A stretch of DNA of 63,704 nucleotides, the filler included, from Globobulimina sp. (Eukaryota), in NCBI GenBank assembly GCA_003354225.1. It is 18 parts of 18 records of this genome, joined end to end, with 100 filler letters (N's around TTAATTAATTAA, not from the genome) between each part and the next. Parts side by side here need not be neighbours in the genome. Positions count along the whole stretch, not along the records: positions 3,548 to 6,994 come from PIVH01002767.1; 17 more parts are not named here. One strand, 5' to 3'. A program made the position numbers and the translations under genes. Below are positions 3,548 through 60,689 of the stretch, one piece after another (positions within the stretch are counted from its first letter, which is position 1; each line of letters opens with the position of its first letter). Under the pieces are notes generated by a model that was not told the DNA's origin, did no database searches, and saw only the letters and a program-made list of their open reading frames with translations.

Positions 3548-3549
3548 AA

Positions 3550-4356
3550 TTACTGTTTGTTGCTAGCTGTGCATCATTCAGATGCAATGTATATTTTCCA
3601 ATCCATTTCAATAAATTAAGACAACAATTGTACGGCGATGGTGACTCAGATTTTATTGAATCATTAGCGGGTTGCAGTGAATGCGATATCTGTGGAGGTA
3701 AAAAAGGAACTTTTTGTACCACATTGGACGGTAAATATCTACTAAAATTTGTCAAATCTGACGAATTTACAATGTTTGTAAACAATTTTGCCTCTTATTA
3801 TGATCATATCAGCAACACATTGTACAATAAGACGGCATCATTGTTAGTTCCTATTATTGGAGCGTATGGGATAAGTTACTCAGACTCAGAGTCAATGCGA
3901 TATGTATTGGTGATGCCAAATCTATTTTATTCGTCGAATAAGGATAAGTTGAAAAAATTTGATTTAAAAGGTACTGTAAATACAAATAGATATATCAATG
4001 ATAAATATGATGTAAAATTGGATAAGAATTATATTGAATATATTGGTGAGTCACCAGTGGTATTAAATAGAGGCAGCATTAATTATTTGCGTGATGCAAT
4101 TGATAATAATACGCAGTTTTTAGCAGAATCAAATATTATGGATTATTCATTATTGATTGGCATCGATTCAGAAACAAATGAGATAATTGGCGGAATAATA
4201 GATTATTTGGAAACATATTCATGGAAAAAAAGAGCGGAAAAAACATTTAAATCATTATTTATTACTGATTCAACAATACAAAACCCATCCATTTATAAAC
4301 AAAGATTTGAAAAATCGATTGTTAACAAATATTTTGTTCATTCAATGCTAAATTGA
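3550..4356 (+). CDS. Fab1/PIKfyve-type PI(3)P 5-kinase catalytic domain, 5' truncated
   Basis: GGKKGTF, YLLKFV, FDLKGT, IMDYSLLIGID, GIIDYLETYSWKK, NPSIYKQRF. Confidence 0.88.
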   Translation, partial: LLFVASCASFRCNVYFPIHFNKLRQQLYGDGDSDFIESLAGCSECDICGGKKGTFCTTLDGKYLLKFVKSDEFTMFVNNFASYYDHISNTLYNKTASLLVPIIGAYGISYSDSESMRYVLVMPNLFYSSNKDKLKKFDLKGTVNTNRYINDKYDVKLDKNYIEYIGESPVVLNRGSINYLRDAIDNNTQFLAESNIMDYSLLIGIDSETNEIIGGIIDYLETYSWKKRAEKTFKSLFITDSTIQNPSIYKQRFEKSIVNKYFVHSMLN

Positions 4357-4563
4357 GATTAGTTTGTGTGTTACTTAAATTTGACTGGTTTGATAAGTGA
4401 CTTTTTTCGTGAATTTGTTTGTTTTTGCCTTTGGTATGTACACTTATTTTTATTTGTAAGTTTTGTAACTAAATTAACCATTTTATAATATAGCTGAAAA
4501 CAGCATAAATAAATCTTTTGGTTTATATTTACACGGATTTATTTAAAAAATCATGATCATTCT

Positions 4564-6994
4564 ATGAAAGTTCAACTCAATCATGAGCTCGTCAAATCTT
4601 TGTGTAAACTTCGCCAAAATTCCAATTCAGACAGATATCACACTGTACAAAAAGCATTCGGCATTTACAATACACTCCATCCAATTCAAAGGGATAAATA
4701 TGTACTGAATACATTGATAAAAATATGTATGGAATTTAATTATCCATCTAAAATATTCCAAATTCATCATCATATCATTGAAACGCATGACATATCATAT
4801 GATTCATACCATTTATTGCTAAAATGTTGTCAAAAAATATTAAAAATGAATTCAAATAAAACATCAAAAGAGGAGGCTTTGAAAATGATAGATTTCATTT
4901 CTAAGCATGTTTATCTTACAAATGACACAAATGACAAACATCAGGTATCGATTAAAAATGCATTGATCAATATTTACTCGGAATGTAATGACATTGCAAA
5001 TGCACTTTGCATATTTAACTCCATCCCACCAAATAAAAAAGATGTTGTTTCAATTAATTCGATGATGAAATGCTATGTTTCCCACAAACAATATCGAAAT
5101 GCACTCGATTTGTATGAGAAATATGACGATGGCGCCATAAAACATGATGATATCTCAAATAATTTATATCTCAAAGCATGTGCCAATGCTAATGCTTATG
5201 GCAAAGGACAAACATTGATCGAATCCAAAATCAATTTCAATGAGGTCAGAATTGAACTGCTTAACACTGCGATTGACTTTTATTGCAAAACAAATAATAT
5301 TCGTAAAGCACATCACTTATTTGAGTCTATTCCAAAAAGTAAAAAAGATGTGGTCTCATACAATGTGATGATGACTGGATTCATAAAAAAACACTATTAC
5401 AAGCCAGCAATGGCACTGTTTGAAGAAATTGACAGTAAATGCATTGATAATAATATATCAAAAATATTGTTTCTCAGAGCATGTATGGACAGTGAAGCCA
5501 ATCAGAATCAGTTACATCCAAAGTACAAAGATCTGATTAAAACGAAAATAATTCCACAATATGTCCAAAAGAAAGCAACTCATTCAAGCATGGAATTGAT
5601 TACTATTTTAATTGATTATTGTGGCACAAATAAGGACTTACGAAATGCAACACAAATATTTAAATCTATCCCCAACCCAAAACATGATGGAGCTATTGGT
5701 GCGATGATGAAATGTTTCATTAATCACAAGCTATATCATGATGCAATATCTGTATATGAATGGCATAACAATAAGCTGCAATTGCAAAACAATGATATCT
5801 TGAACTTGTTATATTTGAAAGCTTTGATAAAAACATGCCAATTTGCAAAAGGAAAAACTTTTATAAACCATGTGAACAATCTCTATAATCACACAATTCA
5901 ATTCATTAACACCGTGATTGATTGTTATGGCCGACATGGTGATAGCAACAAAGCACTGCAAGTATTTGAATCGATACCTGATCATAAAAGAGACATAGTT
6001 TCATATAATATAATGATGACATGTTTTATTAATAATCATATGTACGATGATGCCATTTTATTCTATGAAGAGAATGTTAATGATTCAATTGCAATGAAAG
6101 AGAGAGCTGTGTTGGATTTATTGTACCTGAAAGCATGTAGCAGTCTCAATGAATATGACAAAGGAAAAAGATTAATAGAAAAAAGTAACTTTAATATTAG
6201 TTATTTACTGAAACACAACAATGTGGAATTGGTGCATAGTTTGATGCATTTTTATGGCAAATCAGGAAATATAAATGCAGCAATTTCGATTTTTGAATGC
6301 ATTCCAGATTCAAAAAGAAACATTGTGTCATATTGTACGCTGATAAAATGTTTGAATGATTGCACCCAAATAACAGTGGCTGCGGAATTAATAAAAACAA
6401 TGAAACAAAATGTTATTCATAACAATAAGTTTGCAGACTGGGAGAAACTGATTTGTTTTAATCATATACTATTTGCATATGCAAATATCGCAAATTATGA
6501 AAGAATGTGGAAGGAATATAATGAAATGAAAGCTGTTGGAATTGAGCCAAATTGTGTAACGTTGAGCATTTTGTGCTGTGTTACAGATAAAATAAATAAA
6601 AAAAAAGGATTGGAAGAGGTAAAAATATATTACACAAATTGTGAAATGTTTGATACGTTGGACAGTGCGACTTTGATGGGATTTTATCGGACTGCGATAT
6701 GTGTGGAAGATGCAGAGTTAATAAATATTTTAAAACCAATTATTACGCAATTTATTGCTCCACAAAATGTTTTTGCTGAAATACATTATAAAAATAATAC
6801 AATTTATTTTGATAATTTTTGCAATGAGTTGCAGCTGGATCGAGATGGAAATAATACCAACGTGCAACATTTGCATATATTAAAAAAAATTGATGGCTTA
6901 CTCAAGGAAATTAATCATTATGTTGACATATCTCAACATTGTGAGTTACCTAAAGAAAAAGCACGACGTTTAATATCATATCCCGCTGAAAAAA
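4564..6994 (+). CDS. PLS-class pentatricopeptide repeat protein with start of a DYW-like domain, 3' truncated
   Basis: Repeating P (DVVSYNVMMTGF), L (LYLKAC...KGK) and S (NTVIDCYG...A..VFESIP) motifs. C-terminal PQNVFAEIH..NTIYF (PG-box-like), LKEINHYVD and RLISYPAEK. Confidence 0.85.
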
Positions 6995-7094
6995 NNNNNN
7001 NNNNNNNNNNNNNNNNNNNNNNNNNNNNNNNNNNNNNNTTAATTAATTAANNNNNNNNNNNNNNNNNNNNNNNNNNNNNNNNNNNNNNNNNNNN

Positions 7095-8169: not shown

Positions 8170-8373
8170 AATTCCGAGGTTGTGGCACTCGGGGCTATGC
8201 CCCTAGTCGATAGCTTCTTCCAATTATGGTTCTTTCGATATATTGATGGTTTATTGGAAGATATAAAAAATTTATTTTTTATTTATTTTGTCAGGGCCGA
8301 GATTTTCTCTTATAGCGTTAGGGAGCTCCGAGCGACAAAACAACCTCTTTCCGCCAGTCCACTCATAACTTAA

Positions 8374-10524
8374 ACAAATTAGAAATTATCAGAAAATCGA
8401 TCAAGATGCTTTTGTAAATGATTTGGCAAACGCAGATTGGTCAACAGTCATGCAAGCACTAGGAGAGAACGATGCAAACAAAGCAGCATATGCTTTTAGT
8501 ACAATCTTTCAACTGGTATTTGATGCCCATGCTCCCGCCAATGTCGTAAGAGTTAAATATGGTTCATACCCCTGGATAAATGGTGAAATCAGATCATGGA
8601 TGAGTCTCAGAGATGAATATCTCAAAACTGTTATACAATCGAGAACTCAGGATGATTGGACAGATTACAAAAGGATTCGAAACTTCACATATTCACTGGT
8701 GAAGGAAGCAAAAAGGGACTATTACAAAAACAAGTTTCAAGAAGCAGGATTAAACTCTCGTAAGATGTGGCAATCAGTTCGCGCATTGCTTCCAAAGAAT
8801 ACTCAAAACTCATTTTCAATGAGCAGTGACCAGGATCTTCGAAAAGCAACTGAATTTAATGAATTCTTTTCACAAGTGGGACAAAACACAGCACTTGCTG
8901 CTTCTCTGGATGAAAACAATGACATCAACGAAGTTGCAAACAGTGTACCAATGACTGCCACAAAGCTCACCTTCAGACAGATTTCAAAAAGAGAATTCTA
9001 TAAAGTTATGTTTAGCCTTCCAAACTTCAAGTCACCAGGAAAGGATGGTGTCAACGGATTTGTTGCAAAGATGGCATTGCCAGTCATTGGTGAAATGATA
9101 TACAAAATATTTAATCTGTCACTTGAAACGGGCTCCTTTCCTGACATTTGGAAAGAAGCTGTGGTTATTCCAATTCCGAAATCAGGAGACCTTGACTCAC
9201 CTGCAAATCATCGTCCTATTTCCCTACTGTCACTATTTGGAAAAGCCCTTGAAAGACTTGTATATGATCAACTTTACAATCATTTCAAGAATTATGTCAA
9301 TGAAAACCAGTTTGGCTTTTTACGTGGTCGCTCCACAGAAACTGCTATTTTCAAAATAACGAATGCTATCTATTCAGCCATGAACTCTAAAAATCTTACA
9401 TCCTTGGTATTGCTAGACATGTCAAAGGCTTTTGATAGTGTCAATCATCAAATTTTACTTGCAAAAATGGAACGCTATGGCATTTCTAATATTGAACTTA
9501 AATGGTTTAAATCCTATTTGTCAGATCGTAAACAATGTGTCAGAATGGGAATGCAAATTTCTTCTTCTGTTACTATGTCAACAGGTGTGCCACAAGGCTC
9601 TGTATTGGGTCCTTTACTCTTCCTCATCTTCATTAATGATTTACCTGCCATGATTCGAAAATGTCAATGCACCATGTTCGCGGATGACATTCAGCTTCAA
9701 ATTAATTTTCGCCCTGCTAGCCCAGAAAATGCCTATGTTGATTTGCAGTCAGATTTAAATTCCATTGCGGTCTGGTGCACCAAAAATCAACTCAAAATAA
9801 ACCCAACCAAAACTCAAGTTGTAACTATTGGTACTTCTCAAAATCGGCGCCTGTTAGAACATTTGCCAAACATTCTACTCTTCGATCAAAGATTGGAAAC
9901 TGTATCTGAAGCAAAGAATCTTGGTGTAATATTCGATGAAAATTTGAACTTTCTCTCCCATCTAAAGTCAGTAACAAAACGTTGTAAACGCGACTTATTT
10001 GCGATCAGTCGTGTTAAGGATTGTCTGCCAAGAAGCATTCTTTTAAGACTATCGAAACAATTGTTTTCTCTAAACTTTACTACACAGCCTCAGTTATTCA
10101 AGCTGCCCCTGTGTCTTATGTTGATCAAACTTTCCTTCGTGTCATCAATTATGCTGCCAAAATGGTTTATGGACTCAGAAAATTTGACCATGCCAGTGAA
10201 TGCCGGAGAAAACTGAAATGGTTTGAGCCCAACATGGAACTAAAATTTCGAACTCAATTGATGGTTTATAAACTGTTTTTAGAACAAAGCCCAATTGTCA
10301 ATTTCACTTTCAATGACTGTCGGCGATCTAGTCGATTAAACACAATTCCTAAATTTGTCACGCCACCATTCAGAACGGATACAGCAAGAAGAGCTCTCAG
10401 CTACAGAGCACCTGTGCTATTAAATGAAGCATGTCAAAATCTTAACATTGACTGTTCTTCACCGATTTCTTATGCCAACTTCAAATCAATTTTGAAAAAG
10501 TTCTATGACGAAATGTTATTCTAG
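8374..10524 (+). mobile_element. 5'-truncated non-LTR retrotransposon (CR1/L2/Jockey group) ORF2 reverse transcriptase, frameshifted near 10040
   Basis: KSPGKDG, RPISLLS, QFGF..GRSTETA, DMSKAFDSV, GVPQGSVLGPLLF, FADD, KNLGVIFD. The C-terminus continues in the 10021-10524 frame. No endonuclease domain is present. Confidence 0.93.
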
Positions 10525-10640
10525 TCAGCTCTATATTTGTNNNNNNNNNNNNNNNNNNNNNNNNNNNNNNNNNNNNNNNNNNNNTTAATTAATTAANNNN
10601 NNNNNNNNNNNNNNNNNNNNNNNNNNNNNNNNNNNNNNNN

Positions 10641-12241
10641 TGTGTAGATTTATTAAATTCGTTTTGTAATAATGTCAATTCTTTTTGTATTGAATTATTT
10701 CGTTGCTCTTCAATCTCTCTTTCTTTCTCAACACTGAATTTATTGTCTCTCATTTTATCCATTTCCGACTGTTTGCTTTGTAATTCTTGTCTCATTAATT
10801 CCAGCTCGCCCAATAAATCAATATTTCTTTTCGACAGTTCAGCATTTCGTTTTTGCTCATTCTGTGCCCTCTCATTTGCACATTCAATCTCATTTTGTAG
10901 CAAATCAATTTGATTCACAGCATTGCCATTTTTATCGCCATGCCCATGGCCCACCACTTTGATTCCAGCACTTTTTAATAGATGCTCCAACTGAAAAACA
11001 CGTGCTTTTAAGCGCGCATTCTCCGCTTCTAATTCTTGAATTCTTTTAATTAGTTGCGAGCGGGTCAATTCTTTATTAATTTTTGCTTCGTTTTTAACTT
11101 TTTTAGCAGTCATCGCGAATAATAATGTCCGAACGGTTTCACATCTATTCATAATATGTGGTGATGCAGCCACAATCATTGTCGTTTTGCTGTTTCCGCC
11201 CAAGGAATCCTGTAAAATGTACGTTAATTTATTTGTGCGATAGCTTGGCCTCTGTCCTCTGGTTAAAGCATTGATCGATGTGGTCAGTGCTGTCAAAGAG
11301 CTGTTAATCTCAATGGCTTCCCGTTTTCTTTTCGGATCTGGGTTTTTGCCCAATGCTTTTTCTATATTTTCACTGCCGGCCAAATCTCCGAAGTTAAGCT
11401 TTGATTTTTTCACAGAACCGTCACTCATCTGAACCAGCAAAAAAATTGAGTAAGTTTATAAAATTTATAATGACAAACAAACAAAAAACACATACTTTTT
11501 GCTCCACATTAATCATTAACAACATGTGCGAGCGAGAAGACTTAGAATTTAATTTATGTGATGCGGTCTTTCTGTTTGAAAACGCTTGTTTTAAATTAAT
11601 GAGTATGTCGCCCAAGCTATTAACGGGAATAATATTCAAATCCCGAACATACGGCGTATCAGTTTGGAAATCAGTTTTTACACTTAAATTTTTGGCGGAT
11701 GGGTCTAATAAATCGGACAAATTAGATTTGTACAGCTGGATAAATGCGGCAGTTACGTTGAACTCGGTGACCTGAGCCGAAACTCCTTGAGTTGCTTTGC
11801 GTAGTTTGGCAAATAAGTAAGTGCAACATCTTTGCACTAAGCCTAAATCTCTGGGATTCATGTTCTTTGTTTCTGGACCGAACATAGTGTATGTTTTACC
11901 AGAGCCAGTTTGTCCATATGCAAATATTGTGGAATTATATCCTTCCAATACAGCCTGAACCATCGGTAAACCAACACAGTCAAATAACTTCTTCTGTGTT
12001 GTTTCCATATCAAATATTTGGTCTAATGAAGCCTTAAATTGTTGCTGCTGTTTGGGTTTATTTGGTCGTTTCAGTATCACTGTCTGCTGGGTTCTAAATG
12101 TTGGTTGGTCTGAGTCCTTTGATTCGTTTTGTTCAGTTTCGGAGCTTGGTCGAAATCTGTATATTAATAATATTGCACATAACAAGCTAGTGAATATAAA
12201 GAGGACAGCCATTACCTAGCTACAACTCGAATATTTACCAT
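10641..12241 (-). CDS. Kinesin motor protein (kinesin-1-like motor + coiled coil), introns 12157-12215 and 11429-11495, 3' truncated
   Basis: Splicing gives MVNIRVVARFRP; GQTGSGKT, NSKSSRSH, DLAGSE, KLTYILQDSLGGNSKT. Confidence 0.95.
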
Positions 12242-46090: not shown

Positions 46091-47671
46091 TTTGAAGTGG
46101 TTGGCGACAAATGCAAATTCTTAGATATCCAGAAATTAAAATTACAAGAATCGCCCGAAGACATTCCAACGGGCGAAATGCCACGCCATATCTGGCTATT
46201 TTGTGAACGAAATTTAGTAAACATGGTGAAACCCGGCGGCCGCGTCAACATCATCGGTATTTACAAAATATTCTCACAGAACAACAACCGCAACAATAAG
46301 GACAACAGAGATCGATATTCGGCGAGTGTACGAAAGCCATATATCGAAGTAATCGGCATTGAACAGGTTAACTTAACTCAGAGCCGTGGCAGATTTACTG
46401 CGGAGGAAGAGGAGGAAATTCGTGACTTGTCGCGCTTGCCCAATATACATACTATCATTCAAAATTCCATCTCGCCGGCGATTTGGGGCAATCACAATAT
46501 CAAATTAGCGATCGCAGCTTTGTTGTTTGGTGGTTCTCGCAAAGCGTTGCCAGGTAATATGAAGTTACGTGGCGATATAAACGTGTTGTTGTTGGGTGAT
46601 CCGTCTGTTGCGAAGTCGCAATTTCTTAAATTCGTTTCTCAAGTGGCACCCATTGCAGTGTATACGAGTGGTAAAGGCTCGTCCGCTGCGGGTCTGACTG
46701 CCTCAGTCATTAAAGACCCCGGAACCGGCGAGTTCCACTTGGCTGCCGGCGCCATGGTATTGGCGGACGGCGGCGTTGTATGTATTGATGAATTTGATAA
46801 GATGCGCGAGTCGGATCGTGTCGCTATCCATGAAGCTATGGAACAGCAAACGATCTCGATTGCAAAAGCCGGGATAACGACGATATTAAACAGCCGATCG
46901 TCGGTCTTAGCGGCAGCAAATCCGATATTTGGCCGTTACGATGAAATGCGGACAACGTCGGAAAACATTGATTTTGAGACTACTATTTTGTCGCGCTTCG
47001 ATTTGATATTTATTATTCGCGATATAAAAGACATAAATCGGGACACTCGCTTAGCGCATCATATCATGGGTTTGCATATTAACGTGAATGGCAATAAAAA
47101 GGACGAGGATGAAGAGAATGAGCATATATCGCCAGACTTATTAGGCAAATATGTGTCTTATGCACGACACAAAGTGCATCCCCGAATAACCAGGAAAGCG
47201 GCGGACGTGTTGCAAAATCATTATGTTACGTTTCGAAGAGAGACGAAATTGTTGGCGCAGCAAACTGGAGAGTTGTCTGCCATTCCTTTGACAGTGCGAC
47301 AGTTGGAGTCGTTGATCCGGATCGCGGAGAGCTTGGCAAAGATGCAGTTGTCGCCAGAGGCGAATGAGGAGCACGTTAAAGAGGCCGTGCGTTTGTTTAA
47401 AGTGTCGACGTTGAAAGCCGCAAAGGAAGGGGTTGGCGGCGCCGATATGGGCGGCGGGAATGGCGAAATTGCTGAAAAAGTGCAGAAAGCGGAAAGAAAT
47501 ATTAAAAGGAGGTTGCCGATTGGTTCGAAAACAAATGTTCAGAAATTAACACAGGAAATGGGGCGGAGGAATTTAAGCGAAGCTGTCATTAAGAAAGCAT
47601 TGAATATTATGCATGCGAGAGGAGAGATTGAATTTAGGGCGAGGAGGAGACAAATTTATAGATTAAAATGA
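46091..47671 (+). CDS. MCM5: DNA replication licensing factor MCM5, 5' truncated
   Basis: QESPEDIPTGEMPRH, LRGDINVLLLGDP, IDEFDKM, AMEQQTISIAKAG, ILSRFD. Confidence 0.95.
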   Translation, partial: FEVVGDKCKFLDIQKLKLQESPEDIPTGEMPRHIWLFCERNLVNMVKPGGRVNIIGIYKIFSQNNNRNNKDNRDRYSASVRKPYIEVIGIEQVNLTQSRGRFTAEEEEEIRDLSRLPNIHTIIQNSISPAIWGNHNIKLAIAALLFGGSRKALPGNMKLRGDINVLLLGDPSVAKSQFLKFVSQVAPIAVYTSGKGSSAAGLTASVIKDPGTGEFHLAAGAMVLADGGVVCIDEFDKMRESDRVAIHEAMEQQTISIAKAGITTILNSRSSVLAAANPIFGRYDEMRTTSENIDFETTILSRFDLIFIIRDIKDINRDTRLAHHIMGLHINVNGNKKDEDEENEHISPDLLGKYVSYARHKVHPRITRKAADVLQNHYVTFRRETKLLAQQTGELSAIPLTVRQLESLIRIAESLAKMQLSPEANEEHVKEAVRLFKVSTLKAAKEGVGGADMGGGNGEIAEKVQKAERNIKRRLPIGSKTNVQKLTQEMGRRNLSEAVIKKALNIMHARGEIEFRARRRQIYRLK

Positions 47672-47775
47672 TACATACAATTTATAGATATTCTTGACTA
47701 TTTCTCTGTTTTTGGGTTATTTATTCGTTATAAAAATTAAACTTCTTTTTTTCTCACTTCACTTTACTTAAAACC

Positions 47776-49534
47776 ATGGATGACGCCGACGGCATTATTA
47801 TCCCTATTTTGCGTAGTATCGGCTGTCAAATTGCCCAAAATATTAAATCCGCAGCACAATTTGATGCGCAACTGTTAGTCTATGCATTGGCAAAATGTTT
47901 GCATAGAATCGACGAGCAAAAATATGACAAAATCTCTGACAAATTACCCACTTCGATTGCTAAAAGAGTGCAAACCGGCACCTTAATCGCCAATGCCTTC
48001 AAAAGTCTAAACTATCGCGGCGAGGTTGGCTATGATAAGATAATATATCCAAACGAGAAGGACACGCGCTCCTTATTACGTTTCATGGTCCAACGACTGC
48101 CCAAAGCGGGCGATAAGAAACGCGGTGGTCACGATGACGATGATCCGGATGAAGTTATGGAAGAGGGACAAGCCTTGAATATTCGCATAAGGGATAGCTT
48201 AAAAGATTGGATCAAAAGTAAATATTCCTTCTTGTCGTTAGCCAGCAAAGCCTCCCAATTCAGAACCACGCCCTTAGATTATCCGCATGCTCCCATTCAC
48301 GAAGCCAGCAGCAAATCGCGCGTGAAATACTGCAAAAGTTCCTGTTTGAATTATATCCCTTCGCAGTTGGCCGACTATGAATGGTTTATCCCCTCCATTT
48401 TAGCAGACAATCACAAGGAATTTCTGGTGGAACAGTCCAAAACATACATTTTTGACGAACAAGACTCTGATTTGATTGGCGAGATATTCGGTGACATGAA
48501 AGAATATGAGGATGACATGAGTTTGTCCGCTATTTTTGGTAAATGCATTTCTGCGGAAATGTCCACTGCCAAACAGGAGATGAAAAAAAATGCACATGTT
48601 CGCGGCCAAAATGAGCGCTTTGAAAAGGCGAAAAACAATCAGTTGAACTCTGCGTTTATTTTGCAGAAAAATTATACGCAGCAACAAGCGGAACATGCAC
48701 AAGCTGTGGACGACAGTGGCAAACTTGTGCGGGTCGACATTACTGGAGCTGAGGTGGAACATTTTGACGAGGAACAAAAGGAAGAGAATCGGAAACAGGA
48801 ACTGGATCACGCCAAGTCGCAGATTGTCAAATTGCAGCAACGTTTGAAAAACATGGACGTTGAGATTGAAAAACAAGAAGAATCGTTTGTGAGTAAAGCG
48901 AGAGAATTGGAAGAAAACAAGAAGGAATGTCTCGAGTTGCAGAAAACGTGCATTACAAAGAAGAAAACACTCGATTTGATACCCAATGCACAGGAAAACC
49001 TGAAGAAATTGGCGAAAATTGTAGTGAGTTCGCAGCAGAGATACGACAAAATTGCGGCAGCGTGGCAGGACAAAAAAAATGAGTTTTTGGAAGAGTTTAA
49101 TTTGAAAAAAGATGAGATGGAGCTGCGGAAACAGAGAGCGAATGATTTGCTGTCGGATATCAAAAATATGAGGAAGGAAATGAGAGAGTGTGCCAATGAG
49201 ATCAGAGAGAAGGAGCAGATGGTCAATAAAATGGTGTCCAAATTGAATAAATTGCCAAAGACCATCGACAGACAAGTTTATGTGGACCGCATTTTGGGCG
49301 TTGTGCAAAACTTAGAAAATCAGAATAAACAAATCAAGCAGATATTGGATGATGTGGCGGAGTTTCAGAGAGCGTCTAATTTGGTGTTGGATAAATCGAA
49401 AAGGACATTTGGTGTGGTCGACAATTTGGTATTTACGGCTGCTTCCAATCAAAAAGAAATGTCAGCCAAACGACAGTTAAATCAGATCTATCGACAAGTC
49501 ATTTCAATGAGGGAGTATTTTGATAGTTTGGTGG
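47776..49534 (+). CDS. CCDC22: CCDC22 (CCC/Commander complex), 3' truncated
   Basis: MDDADGIII..LRSIG, LNYRGEVGYDKIIYPNEKDTRSLLRFMVQRLP, long coiled coil, DRQVYVDRILGVVQNL. Confidence 0.88.
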
Positions 49535-57314: not shown

Positions 57315-58436
57315 TTATTGTCTTGAACGTGATCTAGACCGTGATCGTGATCTTGACCTTGCCACACGGTGTTTTGAGTGCTTTTTATCATCTAATTGTT
57401 CAATACCAAATATGGATATCATTGAAGACACAATATTTGTATCATTCTCAATTGTTACAAATTTTGAATTTGAATCGAATGAAAATTCAATTTTTCCATC
57501 ATAATATCCTCTGTGTCTTCTATCTCTATCCATATCTCTCTCCCTCTCCATATCTCTGTCTCTGTGTCTAGCTCTATATCTATCTCTATCTTGCCCTCTT
57601 TCATTCGAATTCCTTCGGATTTCAGAATTAAAATATCTAAATTTACCTCTCCCTTTCCTAGTGGTACCACCTTCATCCACGTAATTTACTGAATTCATTT
57701 TAAACTCTGCCTTTGATTTTTTTTTCTTTCCTTTTCCTTTCTTATCCCTGTAATCATCATCACTTTCACTCTCACTCTCACTCTCTGACTCCGCCTCTGA
57801 CTCTGATGGAGAATGAGAATGAGAATCGTTCTCCGCAACAGAACCATCTCTATGTTCATTATCATCGTTTTTGTTGTTTGTAGGTACACTTTTTTTGACA
57901 AGCATTAATTGGCCACATTTGGAGACACAGATTGGAATTAATGGTCGATCATTTGTGTCTGTTTGAAGTGATTCTATTTTATTAACAACCTCTTTCCCAT
58001 CAATAACTTTCCCAAACACAACATGTTTATTATTTAAATGATCGCAGTTTGACGTACAAATAAAAAATTGTGAACCATTTGTGTTTTTGCCTGCATTTGC
58101 CATGGATAAATAATATTTGTTGTGTTTAATTTTAAAGTTTTCATCATCAAAATGTCGGCCATAAATAGATAGACCTCCGGTACCATCACCTTTTGTAAAA
58201 TCACCCAATTGAATCATAAAACCATTTATCACACGATGTACAATTGAATTTTTATAATATAATCTCTTCTTTCGATTATTTATTGGAAGACTTGATTCTC
58301 CTTTACATAACGAAATAAAATTAATGGCGGTGCGAGGCACGATATCCGCGAATAATTCAATAATAACTCGACCTAAGGCTTCCGTTCCTTGTTTGAAATC
58401 TAGATAACATCGAGGATTTACTGGTTTTTGTGACAT
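57315..58436 (-). CDS. Cyclophilin with RS/RD-rich tail (PPIG-like)
   Basis: HRVINGFMIQLGDF, SIYG..FDDENF, SMANAGKNTNGSQFFI, HVVFGKV; terminal RS repeats. Confidence 0.93.
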   Translation of the reverse strand: MSQKPVNPRCYLDFKQGTEALGRVIIELFADIVPRTAINFISLCKGESSLPINNRKKRLYYKNSIVHRVINGFMIQLGDFTKGDGTGGLSIYGRHFDDENFKIKHNKYYLSMANAGKNTNGSQFFICTSNCDHLNNKHVVFGKVIDGKEVVNKIESLQTDTNDRPLIPICVSKCGQLMLVKKSVPTNNKNDDNEHRDGSVAENDSHSHSPSESEAESESESESESDDDYRDKKGKGKKKKSKAEFKMNSVNYVDEGGTTRKGRGKFRYFNSEIRRNSNERGQDRDRYRARHRDRDMERERDMDRDRRHRGYYDGKIEFSFDSNSKFVTIENDTNIVSSMISIFGIEQLDDKKHSKHRVARSRSRSRSRSRSRQ

Positions 58437-58563
58437 GATGTGGCAGAGCGTACAGTTTTTTCTTAGATCATCAACAAATACTGTTAGTACCTTGAATTTT
58501 TTTGTTTTATTTAAGAAAGCTTAAATTGATAATTTCAAATTGATAATTACTCAAATGTGACGG

Positions 58564-59793
58564 TTAAAAGATGGATTGTTTAAAAGTATTCGATTTATAT
58601 ACATCACCAACCAATATCTCCAATTGTCGAATTGTTTTATGTTTACGCATTGCTTTGATTTGCTGCAGTTGTTTATATTTACTTTGTTTCTCATTCACCG
58701 CCATCACTTTCCCTTCAATCAATGCATCATTATCCTTGTCAATAAAATTTAATATTGGCTCACCATAAAAGGAGGAATCATTTATTTTCAATATATCCCC
58801 TTCAGCCAACAATGGATGATAATAATAATTTGTCTCAATCTGTTTATATAACCAATCCTTGTAATCCCTAAATACTTTCACCATAATGGTTGGTCGCAAA
58901 CGTAATATTTCATGCAACAGTATGCCATCATTATTTATTTGATTTTTAATCAATTCTAAATTATTTTTGTCAATGTTTACATCATTCAAATTCACTTTAG
59001 TAAGCTCCACATTTCTTGAAATTTCTATCAAATTCTTTGGTTGCTGTTTCTTACTCATTTGTTGGATAAATACAATACGAATTAACCTATGGAAGGACAT
59101 CACAATTATGGACGATAAATTCAATAATAATTGGGTCAATTGATATGGATTTAATAATTGTTTTAGAAATAAGATCCTTGGAATAACATCGCCGTCGATA
59201 TTTTGTATTAATACAGTTGGCTGTCTCCGAATTATATCCAATACAAATTCCATTCTTTCCGCTTTGTTTATTTCGCCATTTGCATCATCAATCACATGAT
59301 CACATAAATGTTGCACAATTTCAGTAATTTGATGTTGTAAATATAAAATATCACAGTCCAATGTTAATGGTTGCCGCATTATCATTGTTCTCATATATGA
59401 CTCTCCTCCGAATGTCTCCGATAAAAAATCACTTATTTCTTGTATGTTCTTTTCTGTGTTTGTTATGTCAGTTATTTGTGGATAGTCTTCCAATACTTTG
59501 GCTAGTTTGTCTTTGGATATTTTTAATATATTTGATAATCGGATTGCGAATGGCAATTCATACTGTTCCACACGCCTTAGTTTATTGAAATGAACATAGG
59601 GATTTGGATCAGCATTGCCACGATACATTGGATCTAAAATAGACTTTGCTGATATTTCTTGAGCTTTTATTTTAGGTGATTTCGGCAACAAATGGCGAGG
59701 CAATGTATCCACTATAAAACATTTTTGGATATAATAACTGTATGTTTGATGATGGAAATGTTTCATATAACCGTGATTGACTGAGTTCAACAT
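58564..59793 (-). CDS. mTERF-repeat-like protein
   Basis: VLEDYPQI, MIMRQPLTL and IIRRQPTVLIQNIDGDVIPRILFLKQL resemble mTERF motifs. Confidence 0.62.
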   Translation of the reverse strand: MLNSVNHGYMKHFHHQTYSYYIQKCFIVDTLPRHLLPKSPKIKAQEISAKSILDPMYRGNADPNPYVHFNKLRRVEQYELPFAIRLSNILKISKDKLAKVLEDYPQITDITNTEKNIQEISDFLSETFGGESYMRTMIMRQPLTLDCDILYLQHQITEIVQHLCDHVIDDANGEINKAERMEFVLDIIRRQPTVLIQNIDGDVIPRILFLKQLLNPYQLTQLLLNLSSIIVMSFHRLIRIVFIQQMSKKQQPKNLIEISRNVELTKVNLNDVNIDKNNLELIKNQINNDGILLHEILRLRPTIMVKVFRDYKDWLYKQIETNYYYHPLLAEGDILKINDSSFYGEPILNFIDKDNDALIEGKVMAVNEKQSKYKQLQQIKAMRKHKTIRQLEILVGDVYKSNTFKQSIF

Positions 59794-60689
59794 AACGCGC
59801 TTATTAAAGTCTCAGATGAAAAACTTTTAACTTTCGGAAAAACAATGATCATTCAATTCATTCAACACAATATGCAAATAATCGTCATCTGTTCAGTCGA
59901 AAATAAGAAGTGCTACATTTGCACACCGTGCTATCGCTCATTGGCCCAAACAACGGAAATTTTCAAATCATTTGGTTTTCTATCAATATTTATTACATAT
60001 TTAGTATAGATTCCCGATGTCAAATAATGAGGATACTCTCACAGTGAGTGATACAAACAAATTTGTGACCTCATTCTTTTTTTCCGTAACAATAGGTTTT
60101 CTTATTATTGGTTGTTATATATAATATTGTTACAATTATTCTCAACTAAAACGAAAGCGGTGNNNNNNNNNNNNNNNNNNNNNNNNNNNNNNNNNNNNNN
60201 NNNNNNTTAATTAATTAANNNNNNNNNNNNNNNNNNNNNNNNNNNNNNNNNNNNNNNNNNNNTTACAACCTATACCCAAGAGGATATTGAATTAAATGAT
60301 GAACGTAAAATGAAGAAATTATTAAAATTAAGATTGCAAGAAATTGCAAAAGCAGAAAATTGGGCAAATGAGATGAGTGCTACCAAAACAAATTCAAATA
60401 ATTCCTCAAATTATAGTTCCAATATGGTTGAAAACTAATTACTGTGAAAACAAAACATGGTCTTCTCAGCTCAGCTGACACCAATTCAAAATGTTGTTGA
60501 ATGATATCGATGGCACAACTGCTAATTCGATTCATTGATCAATTCGATTGTTTGCAGCTATGAATTCATAATGTGATAAAATATTTGGCTAACAGTGTTT
60601 CAGAATAAAAAACAGATTCAAAGCATTTTTTGCTTTTTTCATTAACTGAAGAAGCGTCACCAGTTTGCATTGTGCCCCCTCAGTTTGAG

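Follow-up and report, generated by a model that had tools for sequence, protein, structure and literature searches.

Does a PLS-type PPR protein with a DYW-like C-terminus, encoded in an assembly of Globobulimina sp., point to a C-to-U editing system in the organelles of this lineage, or is it a non-catalytic derivative in which the zinc-ligand histidine of the deaminase has become proline? The preliminary description of the locus offered these as its two options. The family proves to be of the editing type, with intact active sites in the relatives of this protein, but the two options are not mutually exclusive. Here we consider the gene and its host contig, the repeat array and deaminase, the family to which they belong and the status of the proline codon, within a window of 63,704 nucleotides that comprises 18 contigs of about 3.45 kb apiece with N spacers between them.

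A PPR-DYW gene beside PIP5K on a contig of probable foraminiferal origin

The contig of interest occupies positions 3548-6994 and carries two features, the PPR-DYW open reading frame (ORF) being located 3′ of part of a PIP5K gene:

3550..4356, + strand: PIP5K, 3′ part of the gene (Pfam PIP5K, 3e-32), a taxonomic marker outside the editing system
4564..6993, + strand: PLS-type PPR-DYW protein with its 3′ end absent (about 65-75 aa more expected from relatives)

The closest relative of the PIP5K neighbour, among two matches at E ≤ 1e-20, is from the foraminifer Bolivina argentea (57% identity). When contigs of four sequencing runs (X1-X4) were compared to the window, a single X1 contig across 3906-5327 linked PIP5K with the PPR-DYW ORF. 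Since the neighbouring gene is nearest to that of B. argentea and the X1 contig joins both genes, the contig is most likely foraminiferal nuclear DNA. The ORF encodes 810 aa, is stop-free and intronless, and runs open into the contig end at 6994.

Several observations concern the region between the two genes. Deep contigs of X2, X3 and X4 end at 4479-4503, behind PIP5K, while X1 continues; these steps in depth look RNA-like, from which no conclusion on expression is drawn. A uORF of four codons in another frame is present at 4554-4568, its stop overlapping the start codon at 4564. A GT...AG stretch upstream (4456-4493) was rejected as an intron, because no exon in frame results from it and no junction was observed.

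Other contigs of the window hold ordinary eukaryotic genes, encoding a Ras-family GTPase (1554-2639), a kinesin recognised by eye (10592-12215), MCM5 (46094-47668), CCDC22 (47734-49533) and a cyclophilin (57318-58520). A reverse transcriptase of the non-LTR retrotransposon type (8369-10524, + strand; Pfam RVT_1, 9e-42) shifts frame near 10018-10216 and has a GC content of 37% against about 30% around it; it could be an element of the genome or a contaminant contig. An ORF at 58567-59811 (− strand) has a weak mTERF match (3.8e-06, barely above the cut-off), which would represent a second organellar repeat family that binds RNA or DNA.

The ORF contains an array of PLS-type PPR repeats

PPR repeats were recognised in the 810-aa ORF by Pfam (PPR_2, 2e-37), and the top match in a sequence search of the PDB was the synthetic PPR-DYW protein 9kfx (4e-34), whose P, L and S motifs line up with those of the ORF. 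An AF2 model of the ORF (mean pLDDT 89.4) consists of helical hairpins along its whole length and likewise has 9kfx as its top fold match (E 1e-12). Pfam matches to NifW and PYRIN scored under the cut-off and were rejected. Motif borders, placed by hand from the 9kfx alignment and the AF2 helices, divide the protein upstream of the deaminase as follows:

4564..4641, + strand: N-terminal stretch, basic and acid-poor (net +3 in aa 2-26), a putative weak mitochondrial presequence
4633..4944, + strand: degenerate helical hairpins, aa 24-127, before the regular repeats (AF2)
4945..6222, + strand: four S-P-L PPR triplets, aa 128-553 (9kfx alignment and AF2 helices)
6223..6552, + strand: fifth S motif and two P-like motifs, the last of which is NN (Pfam, AF2 and hand placement)
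6553..6759, + strand: two helical hairpins (37 and 32 aa) where plant factors have E1/E2, conserved across the foraminiferal family (AF2)

The degenerate hairpins are formed by helices at aa 24-36, 45-57, 61-74, 79-94 and 99-118. Within the triplets, the S motifs have 32-33 aa, the P motifs 34-37 aa and the L motifs 34-46 aa, giving a period of 101-114 aa. Comparison of triplet with triplet yielded scores of 99-191 for all six pairs, against a shuffle maximum of 48-56, and the P-L-S triplets claimed in the preliminary description are thus borne out as four S-P-L triplets in the register of 9kfx.

Canonical PPR code pairs are present in 7 of the 17 motifs in the ORF. The pairs at residues 5 and last are ND in S1, P1, S2 and S4 and NN in P2, the other triplet motifs being non-canonical. 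In the plant PPR code, ND or NN pairs at these residues prefer U or C/U. With six P and S motifs reading ND or NN, the RNA target of this protein would be pyrimidine-rich.

At the end of the array, no terminal P2-L2-S2 triplet was recognised by hand placement, and the motifs instead finish S-P-P. No match to the Pfam E_motif was found on the 810-aa ORF. The two hairpins that follow are putative equivalents of E1/E2, judging from their position and from the end-to-end match to 9kfx (Z 23.9, rmsd 13.8 over 566 residues) of an AF2 model of P0002, the nearest complete relative.

The C-terminal region is the first half of a DYW-family deaminase

The ORF finishes inside the deaminase, where three features matter:

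6760..6993, + strand: N-terminal half (78 aa) of a DYW-family deaminase (family profile and AF2)
6982..6984, + strand: codon 807, CCC (Pro) as read in a single assembly, aligned with the histidine that is the Zn1 ligand of OTP86 (H892)
6988..6990, + strand: Glu809, GAA, in the catalytic glutamate column (OTP86 E894), retained

The motifs from which a DYW-like domain had been proposed are all in the ORF translation, namely PQNVFAEIHYKNNTIYF from position 6760, ILKKIDGLLKEINHYVD and RRLISYPAEK, and the catalytic Glu is kept, as had been claimed. This half comprises a PG-box-like beta hairpin (aa 737-750), a gating helix (aa 770-782), the sequence NHYVD as the equivalent of GYVPD, and a helix in the AF2 model (aa 797-805) that leads to the HxE site. 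The likeness to the PG box holds for the predicted beta hairpin but not for the PG dipeptide itself, which is PQ in the ORF and variable in relatives.

The contig end cuts the ORF within the most conserved motif of the family, and Pfam gave no DYW_deaminase match on the truncated ORF itself. An unindexed search with its last 198 aa, which bear the Pro, returned 134 matches, of which 19, selected for matching into the C-terminal part, were scanned; DYW_deaminase was above the cut-off in 18 of these, the remaining one being truncated. The HMM check advised in the preliminary description is therefore negative for the fragment, but positive for its relatives and for the family profile. The relatives extend about 65-75 aa beyond the end of the ORF, through H(A/S)EKKALA, (R)MCxDCH and H-x-F-x-x-G-x-C and one more Cys. 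A profile built from 15 relatives matches the DYW domain of OTP86 (7o4e, 1.5e-20), DYW1 (7w86) and 9kfx; aa 735-810 of the ORF align to positions 1-66 of this profile with 45.2 bits (the best of 1000 shuffles reached 7.7), placing Pro807 in the His column. The AF2 model of P0002 (pLDDT 93.7) superimposes on 7o4f with Z 16.9 and rmsd 2.4 over 124 residues. With relatives that run into a complete deaminase with CxxC and this match to the family profile, the DYW-like reading is upheld, and by homology the ORF is a member of the PPR-DYW family (PF14432).

Extension of the contig toward the CxxC motif was unsuccessful, no sequence beyond 6995 being found among the listed pieces of runs X1-X4, and an exact probe of 21 bases had no match in the metagenome contigs. 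A word-indexed search with aa 540-810 gave 0 of 1405 candidates and missed relatives that the unindexed search recovered. The run of A with which the contig ends needs no poly(A) tail to explain it, being accounted for by the E-K-K codons.

The protein belongs to an expanded clade whose other members retain the zinc ligand

A family profile search identified 71 proteins and 46 loci. In the deaminase tree (113 rows and 149 columns, built with no outgroup after removal of 7 loci that were short or frameshifted), the ORF, whose row fills 46% of the columns, has P0002 and P0144 as its neighbours within a 45-row clade supported at 100/94. Outside this clade are algal-type proteins (Pavlovales, Aureococcus, dinoflagellate), and plant-type rows, mostly without species names, are placed beyond a split supported at 100/97. 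Because the tree is unrooted, the row of the ORF is partial and the plant-type rows are mostly unnamed, we make no claim as to donor, origin or direction of transfer. The label 'plant-style' given in the preliminary description thus suits the repeats but not the deaminase, which is in a clade of its own away from the plant-type rows sampled.

Among 27 clade members that were looked up, 11 are named, all from Nonionella stella (a count that may include alleles or isoforms; P0144 and P0007 are N. stella proteins), and 16 are metagenome proteins. A direct indication of close paralogues in the organism of the ORF itself comes from runs X1-X4, in which paralogous contigs match the ORF over 5693-5729, 6248-6283 and 6758-6817. 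One such contig (X4 record 30, 5904-6089) has 26 differences over 186 bases; 16 of these are listed, and 11 of the 16 are silent.

The His of HxE is present in all 43 other clade proteins and in locus L002, hence in 44/44 other rows, in searches seeded with words bearing His and CxxC that would under-sample degenerate copies. CxxCH is present in 42 of the 43 proteins, the exception being truncated. A DYW tail at the C-terminus is found in 0/43, a few of which are truncated, and the column of OTP86 K915 is mostly Val. Judged from these sequences, the clade represents PPR-DYW proteins of a known kind in a tail-less form, and falls outside the plant DYW:PG subgroup, for which PG and the tail are the defining features.

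Members of the family have two forms, a short P-type form of about 480-540 aa and a long form with S-P-L triplets. At least two S motifs, spaced at about 100 aa or a multiple of this, occur in 9/44 proteins, and S-motif matches are lacking in 32/44, several being fragments. By its repeat composition the ORF is the long form with added S-P-L triplets.

Some further observations were made on the family. P0074 (N. stella) contains a tandem duplication of about 43 aa including HAEK, which is either real or an assembly artefact. L001 (328-1918) is a PPR-DYW gene split across two frames (328 and 917) by an intron or a frameshift. The large algal-type group adjoining the foraminiferal clade comprises P0167-P0173, P0176, P0180 and P0193 and loci L003, L005, L010, L018 and L030. 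No match named Reticulomyxa appeared in the word-limited protein search with the family profile, and an Atlas look-up returned generic families only.

Codon 807 reads proline in a gene under purifying selection

The assembly has CCC at codon 807, one base from CAC, as the preliminary description had noted in reporting that the zinc-ligand His is Pro. This codon is 12 bases from the contig end. CCC is rare among the Pro codons of the ORF (2/17), and this rarity, together with the single step from CAC, counts for a real Pro, although a base error would look identical. All 19 scanned relatives have His at this site, though the query carried Pro. X1 contigs end at 6906, short of the codon. The codon is spanned by a short X3 contig (about 97 bases, c. 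6898-6995 as estimated from bin depth, 95-99% identity), which neither supports nor contradicts Pro807 because differences within 30 bases of contig ends are apparently unlisted (the listed rows are all at least 31 bases from an end) and the site falls inside this zone. The end of the X3 contig is within one base of that of the window contig, inside the A run of the E-K-K motif.

The near-identical contigs show that the ORF is under purifying selection. Their 22 listed differences, from contigs of depth 2-5 that could include errors or a close paralogue, are 12 amino-acid-changing to 10 silent, compared with an expectation of 76-80% amino-acid-changing (p 0.006-0.02), and pN/pS is about 0.3-0.37. 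Half of the 22 differences between the ORF and these low-depth contigs are A/C or G/T changes, which counts against a real Pro807, as do the closeness of the codon to the contig end, the stop of the X1 contigs at 6906 and the retention of His in every other clade row. The DYW half of the ORF is 31-51% identical to seven near members, which are 39-71% identical among themselves, so that its identities are a few points under their mutual identities, and its branch in the tree (0.36) compares with 0.27 and 0.38 for its neighbours.

A genuine Pro807 would almost certainly leave the enzyme inactive, since His is required in OTP86, in which H892A and H892C are both inactive in the published assays described (PMC7611903). 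While it reads Pro, the ORF should not be filed as an active deaminase. A derivative in which His807Pro is fixed, and which would guide an intact paralogue in trans or stabilise or process an organellar transcript, draws support from that requirement, from the codon itself and from the purifying selection on the PPR part, and has precedents in maize PPR103 and moss PpPPR_43, which are described as having degenerate DYW domains (PMC4872118). The His is, however, lost in 0/44 other rows of the clade, codon 807 rests on a single assembly, and elsewhere in the DYW half, Glu809 included, there is no clear acceleration of the kind that an old loss should permit. We consider a fixed derivative unlikely. 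For Pro807 itself, a base error is the foremost candidate, with not quite an even chance of being right, a recent or individual variant is a serious second, and a fixed old loss is improbable; the C at 6983 has somewhat better than an even chance of really being in the DNA. Two observations favour a recent variant or an error over an old specialisation: the ORF is constrained, and the divergence of its DYW half hardly exceeds that of its relatives, whereas a domain long inactive would be expected to show more drift. The non-catalytic derivative originally suggested keeps the Pro read in the assembly, but this is one base near a contig end, and the constraint on the gene argues against an old loss.

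Comparison with known PPR-DYW systems

The ORF resembles the PLS-E1-E2-DYW factors of land plants in its P, L and S triplets, two E-like hairpins, PG-box beta hairpin and gating helix, and its relatives resemble land-plant DYW domains in carrying HxE, CxxC and the second-zinc set of His and Cys, as well as in the fold of P0002 (Z 16.9, rmsd 2.4). Unlike land-plant DYW factors, the clade stands on its own, has no DYW tail, has Val for K915 and is missing the PG dipeptide; the S motifs of the ORF are 33 aa, the array ends S-P-P and the Pfam E_motif is absent. Many members of the family also have no PLS triplets, and the ORF reads Pro for the zinc His.

Lineage-specific expansion of non-plant PPR-DYW proteins is a likeness to Naegleria, Acrasis, Physarum, paradinid Ascetosporea and Diplonema PPRD1, with which the comparison was made by description, as protist PPR-DYW sequences (Naegleria, paradinids etc.) are not named rows in the tree. 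Physarum differs in having mostly LS arrays and Diplonema in having a single P-type protein, and the foraminifera are another lineage. The PPR-DYW-like proteins of algae (Pavlovales P0183, Aureococcus P0193, dinoflagellate TGD P0181) share HAEKKALA and, like the foraminiferal clade, lie opposite the plant-type rows across the 100/97 split, but their clade is separate, several have an RRM (PF00076) and many have a W-R-W-like tail. Maize PPR103/EMB175 and moss PpPPR_43 also combine a PLS array with a DYW domain missing a catalytic residue; in contrast to the ORF, where a single base is concerned and the half-domain is conserved, their losses are shared by orthologues and accompanied by wider decay.

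Proposed function

With the balance tipping slightly in its favour, the explanation that best accounts for the whole is a nuclear gene of a foraminifer, belonging to a PPR-DYW clade that is specific to this lineage and has expanded in it. The proteins of this clade would most likely enter the mitochondrion. Each of their PPR repeats would recognise a single base of a U-rich RNA segment via residues 5 and last, and the E-like hairpins would position the deaminase, in which zinc held by His and two Cys (HxE...CxxC) would activate water, with Glu acting as the base. A C a few bases downstream would be turned into U, as by plant PPR-DYW factors; repeat reading, deaminase placement and the zinc mechanism are taken from accounts of plant work (PMC7611903; bioRxiv 10.64898/2026.09.04.749523). 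His807Pro would then most likely have one of two causes, a loss-of-function variant that is recent or confined to an individual, or a wrong base where the tail of the contig has low cover.

Entry into the mitochondrion is suggested by the N-termini of 31 full-length members, which have a mean net charge of +2.5 compared with +0.1 for 763 internal windows of the same family (p 1e-7), the control being these windows rather than a set of non-mitochondrial foraminiferal proteins. Such basic, acid-poor N-termini are consistent with mitochondrial presequences. The N-terminus of the ORF itself is weakly presequence-like, with helices in the AF2 model from residue 5.

Mitochondrial C-to-U editing is reported as shown or inferred for the PPR-DYW systems of Naegleria, Acrasis, Physarum, paradinids and Diplonema; the reports include PPR-DYW proteins together with mitochondrial C-to-U editing in paradinid Rhizaria (PMC11946409) and knock-down evidence for PPR-DYW editing in Diplonema (bioRxiv 10.64898/2026.09.04.749523). 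The substrate is likely to be mitochondrial RNA, as in Naegleria, paradinids and Diplonema, and mitochondrial C-to-U editing in foraminifera is plausible. The lack of the DYW tripeptide in the clade, the Val at the K915 column and the non-canonical code pairs in all but 7 of the 17 motifs of the ORF count against an editing role; in OTP86, the Asp and Trp of the tripeptide are reported to support activity (PMC7611903). In the sections available, the study of retarian mitochondrial genomes describes a frameshift in miliolid cox1 and a split nad1 and does not mention C-to-U changes (PMC10127745), and the foraminiferal mitogenome and COI papers describe no RNA comparison (PMC10127745, PMC8589990).

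The clade may instead have no editing role left, or act on another substrate, be it mitochondrial rRNA fragments, imported tRNAs, foreign nucleic acid or the RNA of plastids that were stolen or belong to symbionts. Nonionella stella keeps diatom plastids, and the nearest rows outside the clade are of algal type (Pavlovales, Aureococcus, dinoflagellate). Retarian mitogenomes are described as having no tRNAs and fragmented rRNAs (PMC10127745), and the function of such algal-type proteins in dinoflagellates has been called an open question (PMC12787238). Nevertheless, in the non-plant groups for which organellar RNA was studied alongside PPR-DYW proteins (Naegleria, paradinids and Diplonema), mitochondrial transcripts proved to be C-to-U edited; the basic N-termini fit mitochondrial import, and a multi-copy family with varied repeat arrays suits editing with one factor per site. 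Another substrate, or none, is accordingly an improbable explanation. We hold as more doubtful still a plant-like C-to-U system of foraminifera, based on this non-plant, tail-less DYW clade that also lacks the inhibitory lysine, in which a division of labour would have arisen independently between catalytic paralogues and zinc-dead PLS guides, this gene among them, that recruit an active partner in trans. That the gene is a decaying pseudogene, or that its 3′ tail is chimeric with a paralogue, would fit the loss of His, the stretches shared with paralogous contigs and a contig end falling in a motif common to most paralogues, but is very unlikely in view of 2430 stop-free bases, the low pN/pS, X1 contigs over 3569-5327 and 6158-6906 and the X3 contig over the tail.

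Significance of a foraminiferal PPR-DYW family

PPR-DYW proteins outside plants are already documented, Rhizaria included (PMC11946409), and 31 rhizarian DYW domains have been counted in NR, the species of which are not named in the text concerned and may include foraminifera (PMC13386178). No description of a foraminiferal PPR-DYW family was found in a search of the largely open-access literature on foraminifera and Rhizaria. Another protist lineage with these proteins is only mildly surprising, Rhizaria having them, and the change of His to Pro is known from one assembly.

The first foraminiferal mitochondrial genomes, published in 2021-2023, are reported to have divergent genes. At least 11 PPR-DYW proteins with intact sites in one foraminifer predict C-to-U sites in mitochondrial transcripts. 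If this is true, COI barcodes and the mitochondrial protein sequences deduced from foraminiferal DNA would call for re-examination, and the tail-less DYW variant would provide a natural test of the DYW tail and the K915 lock.
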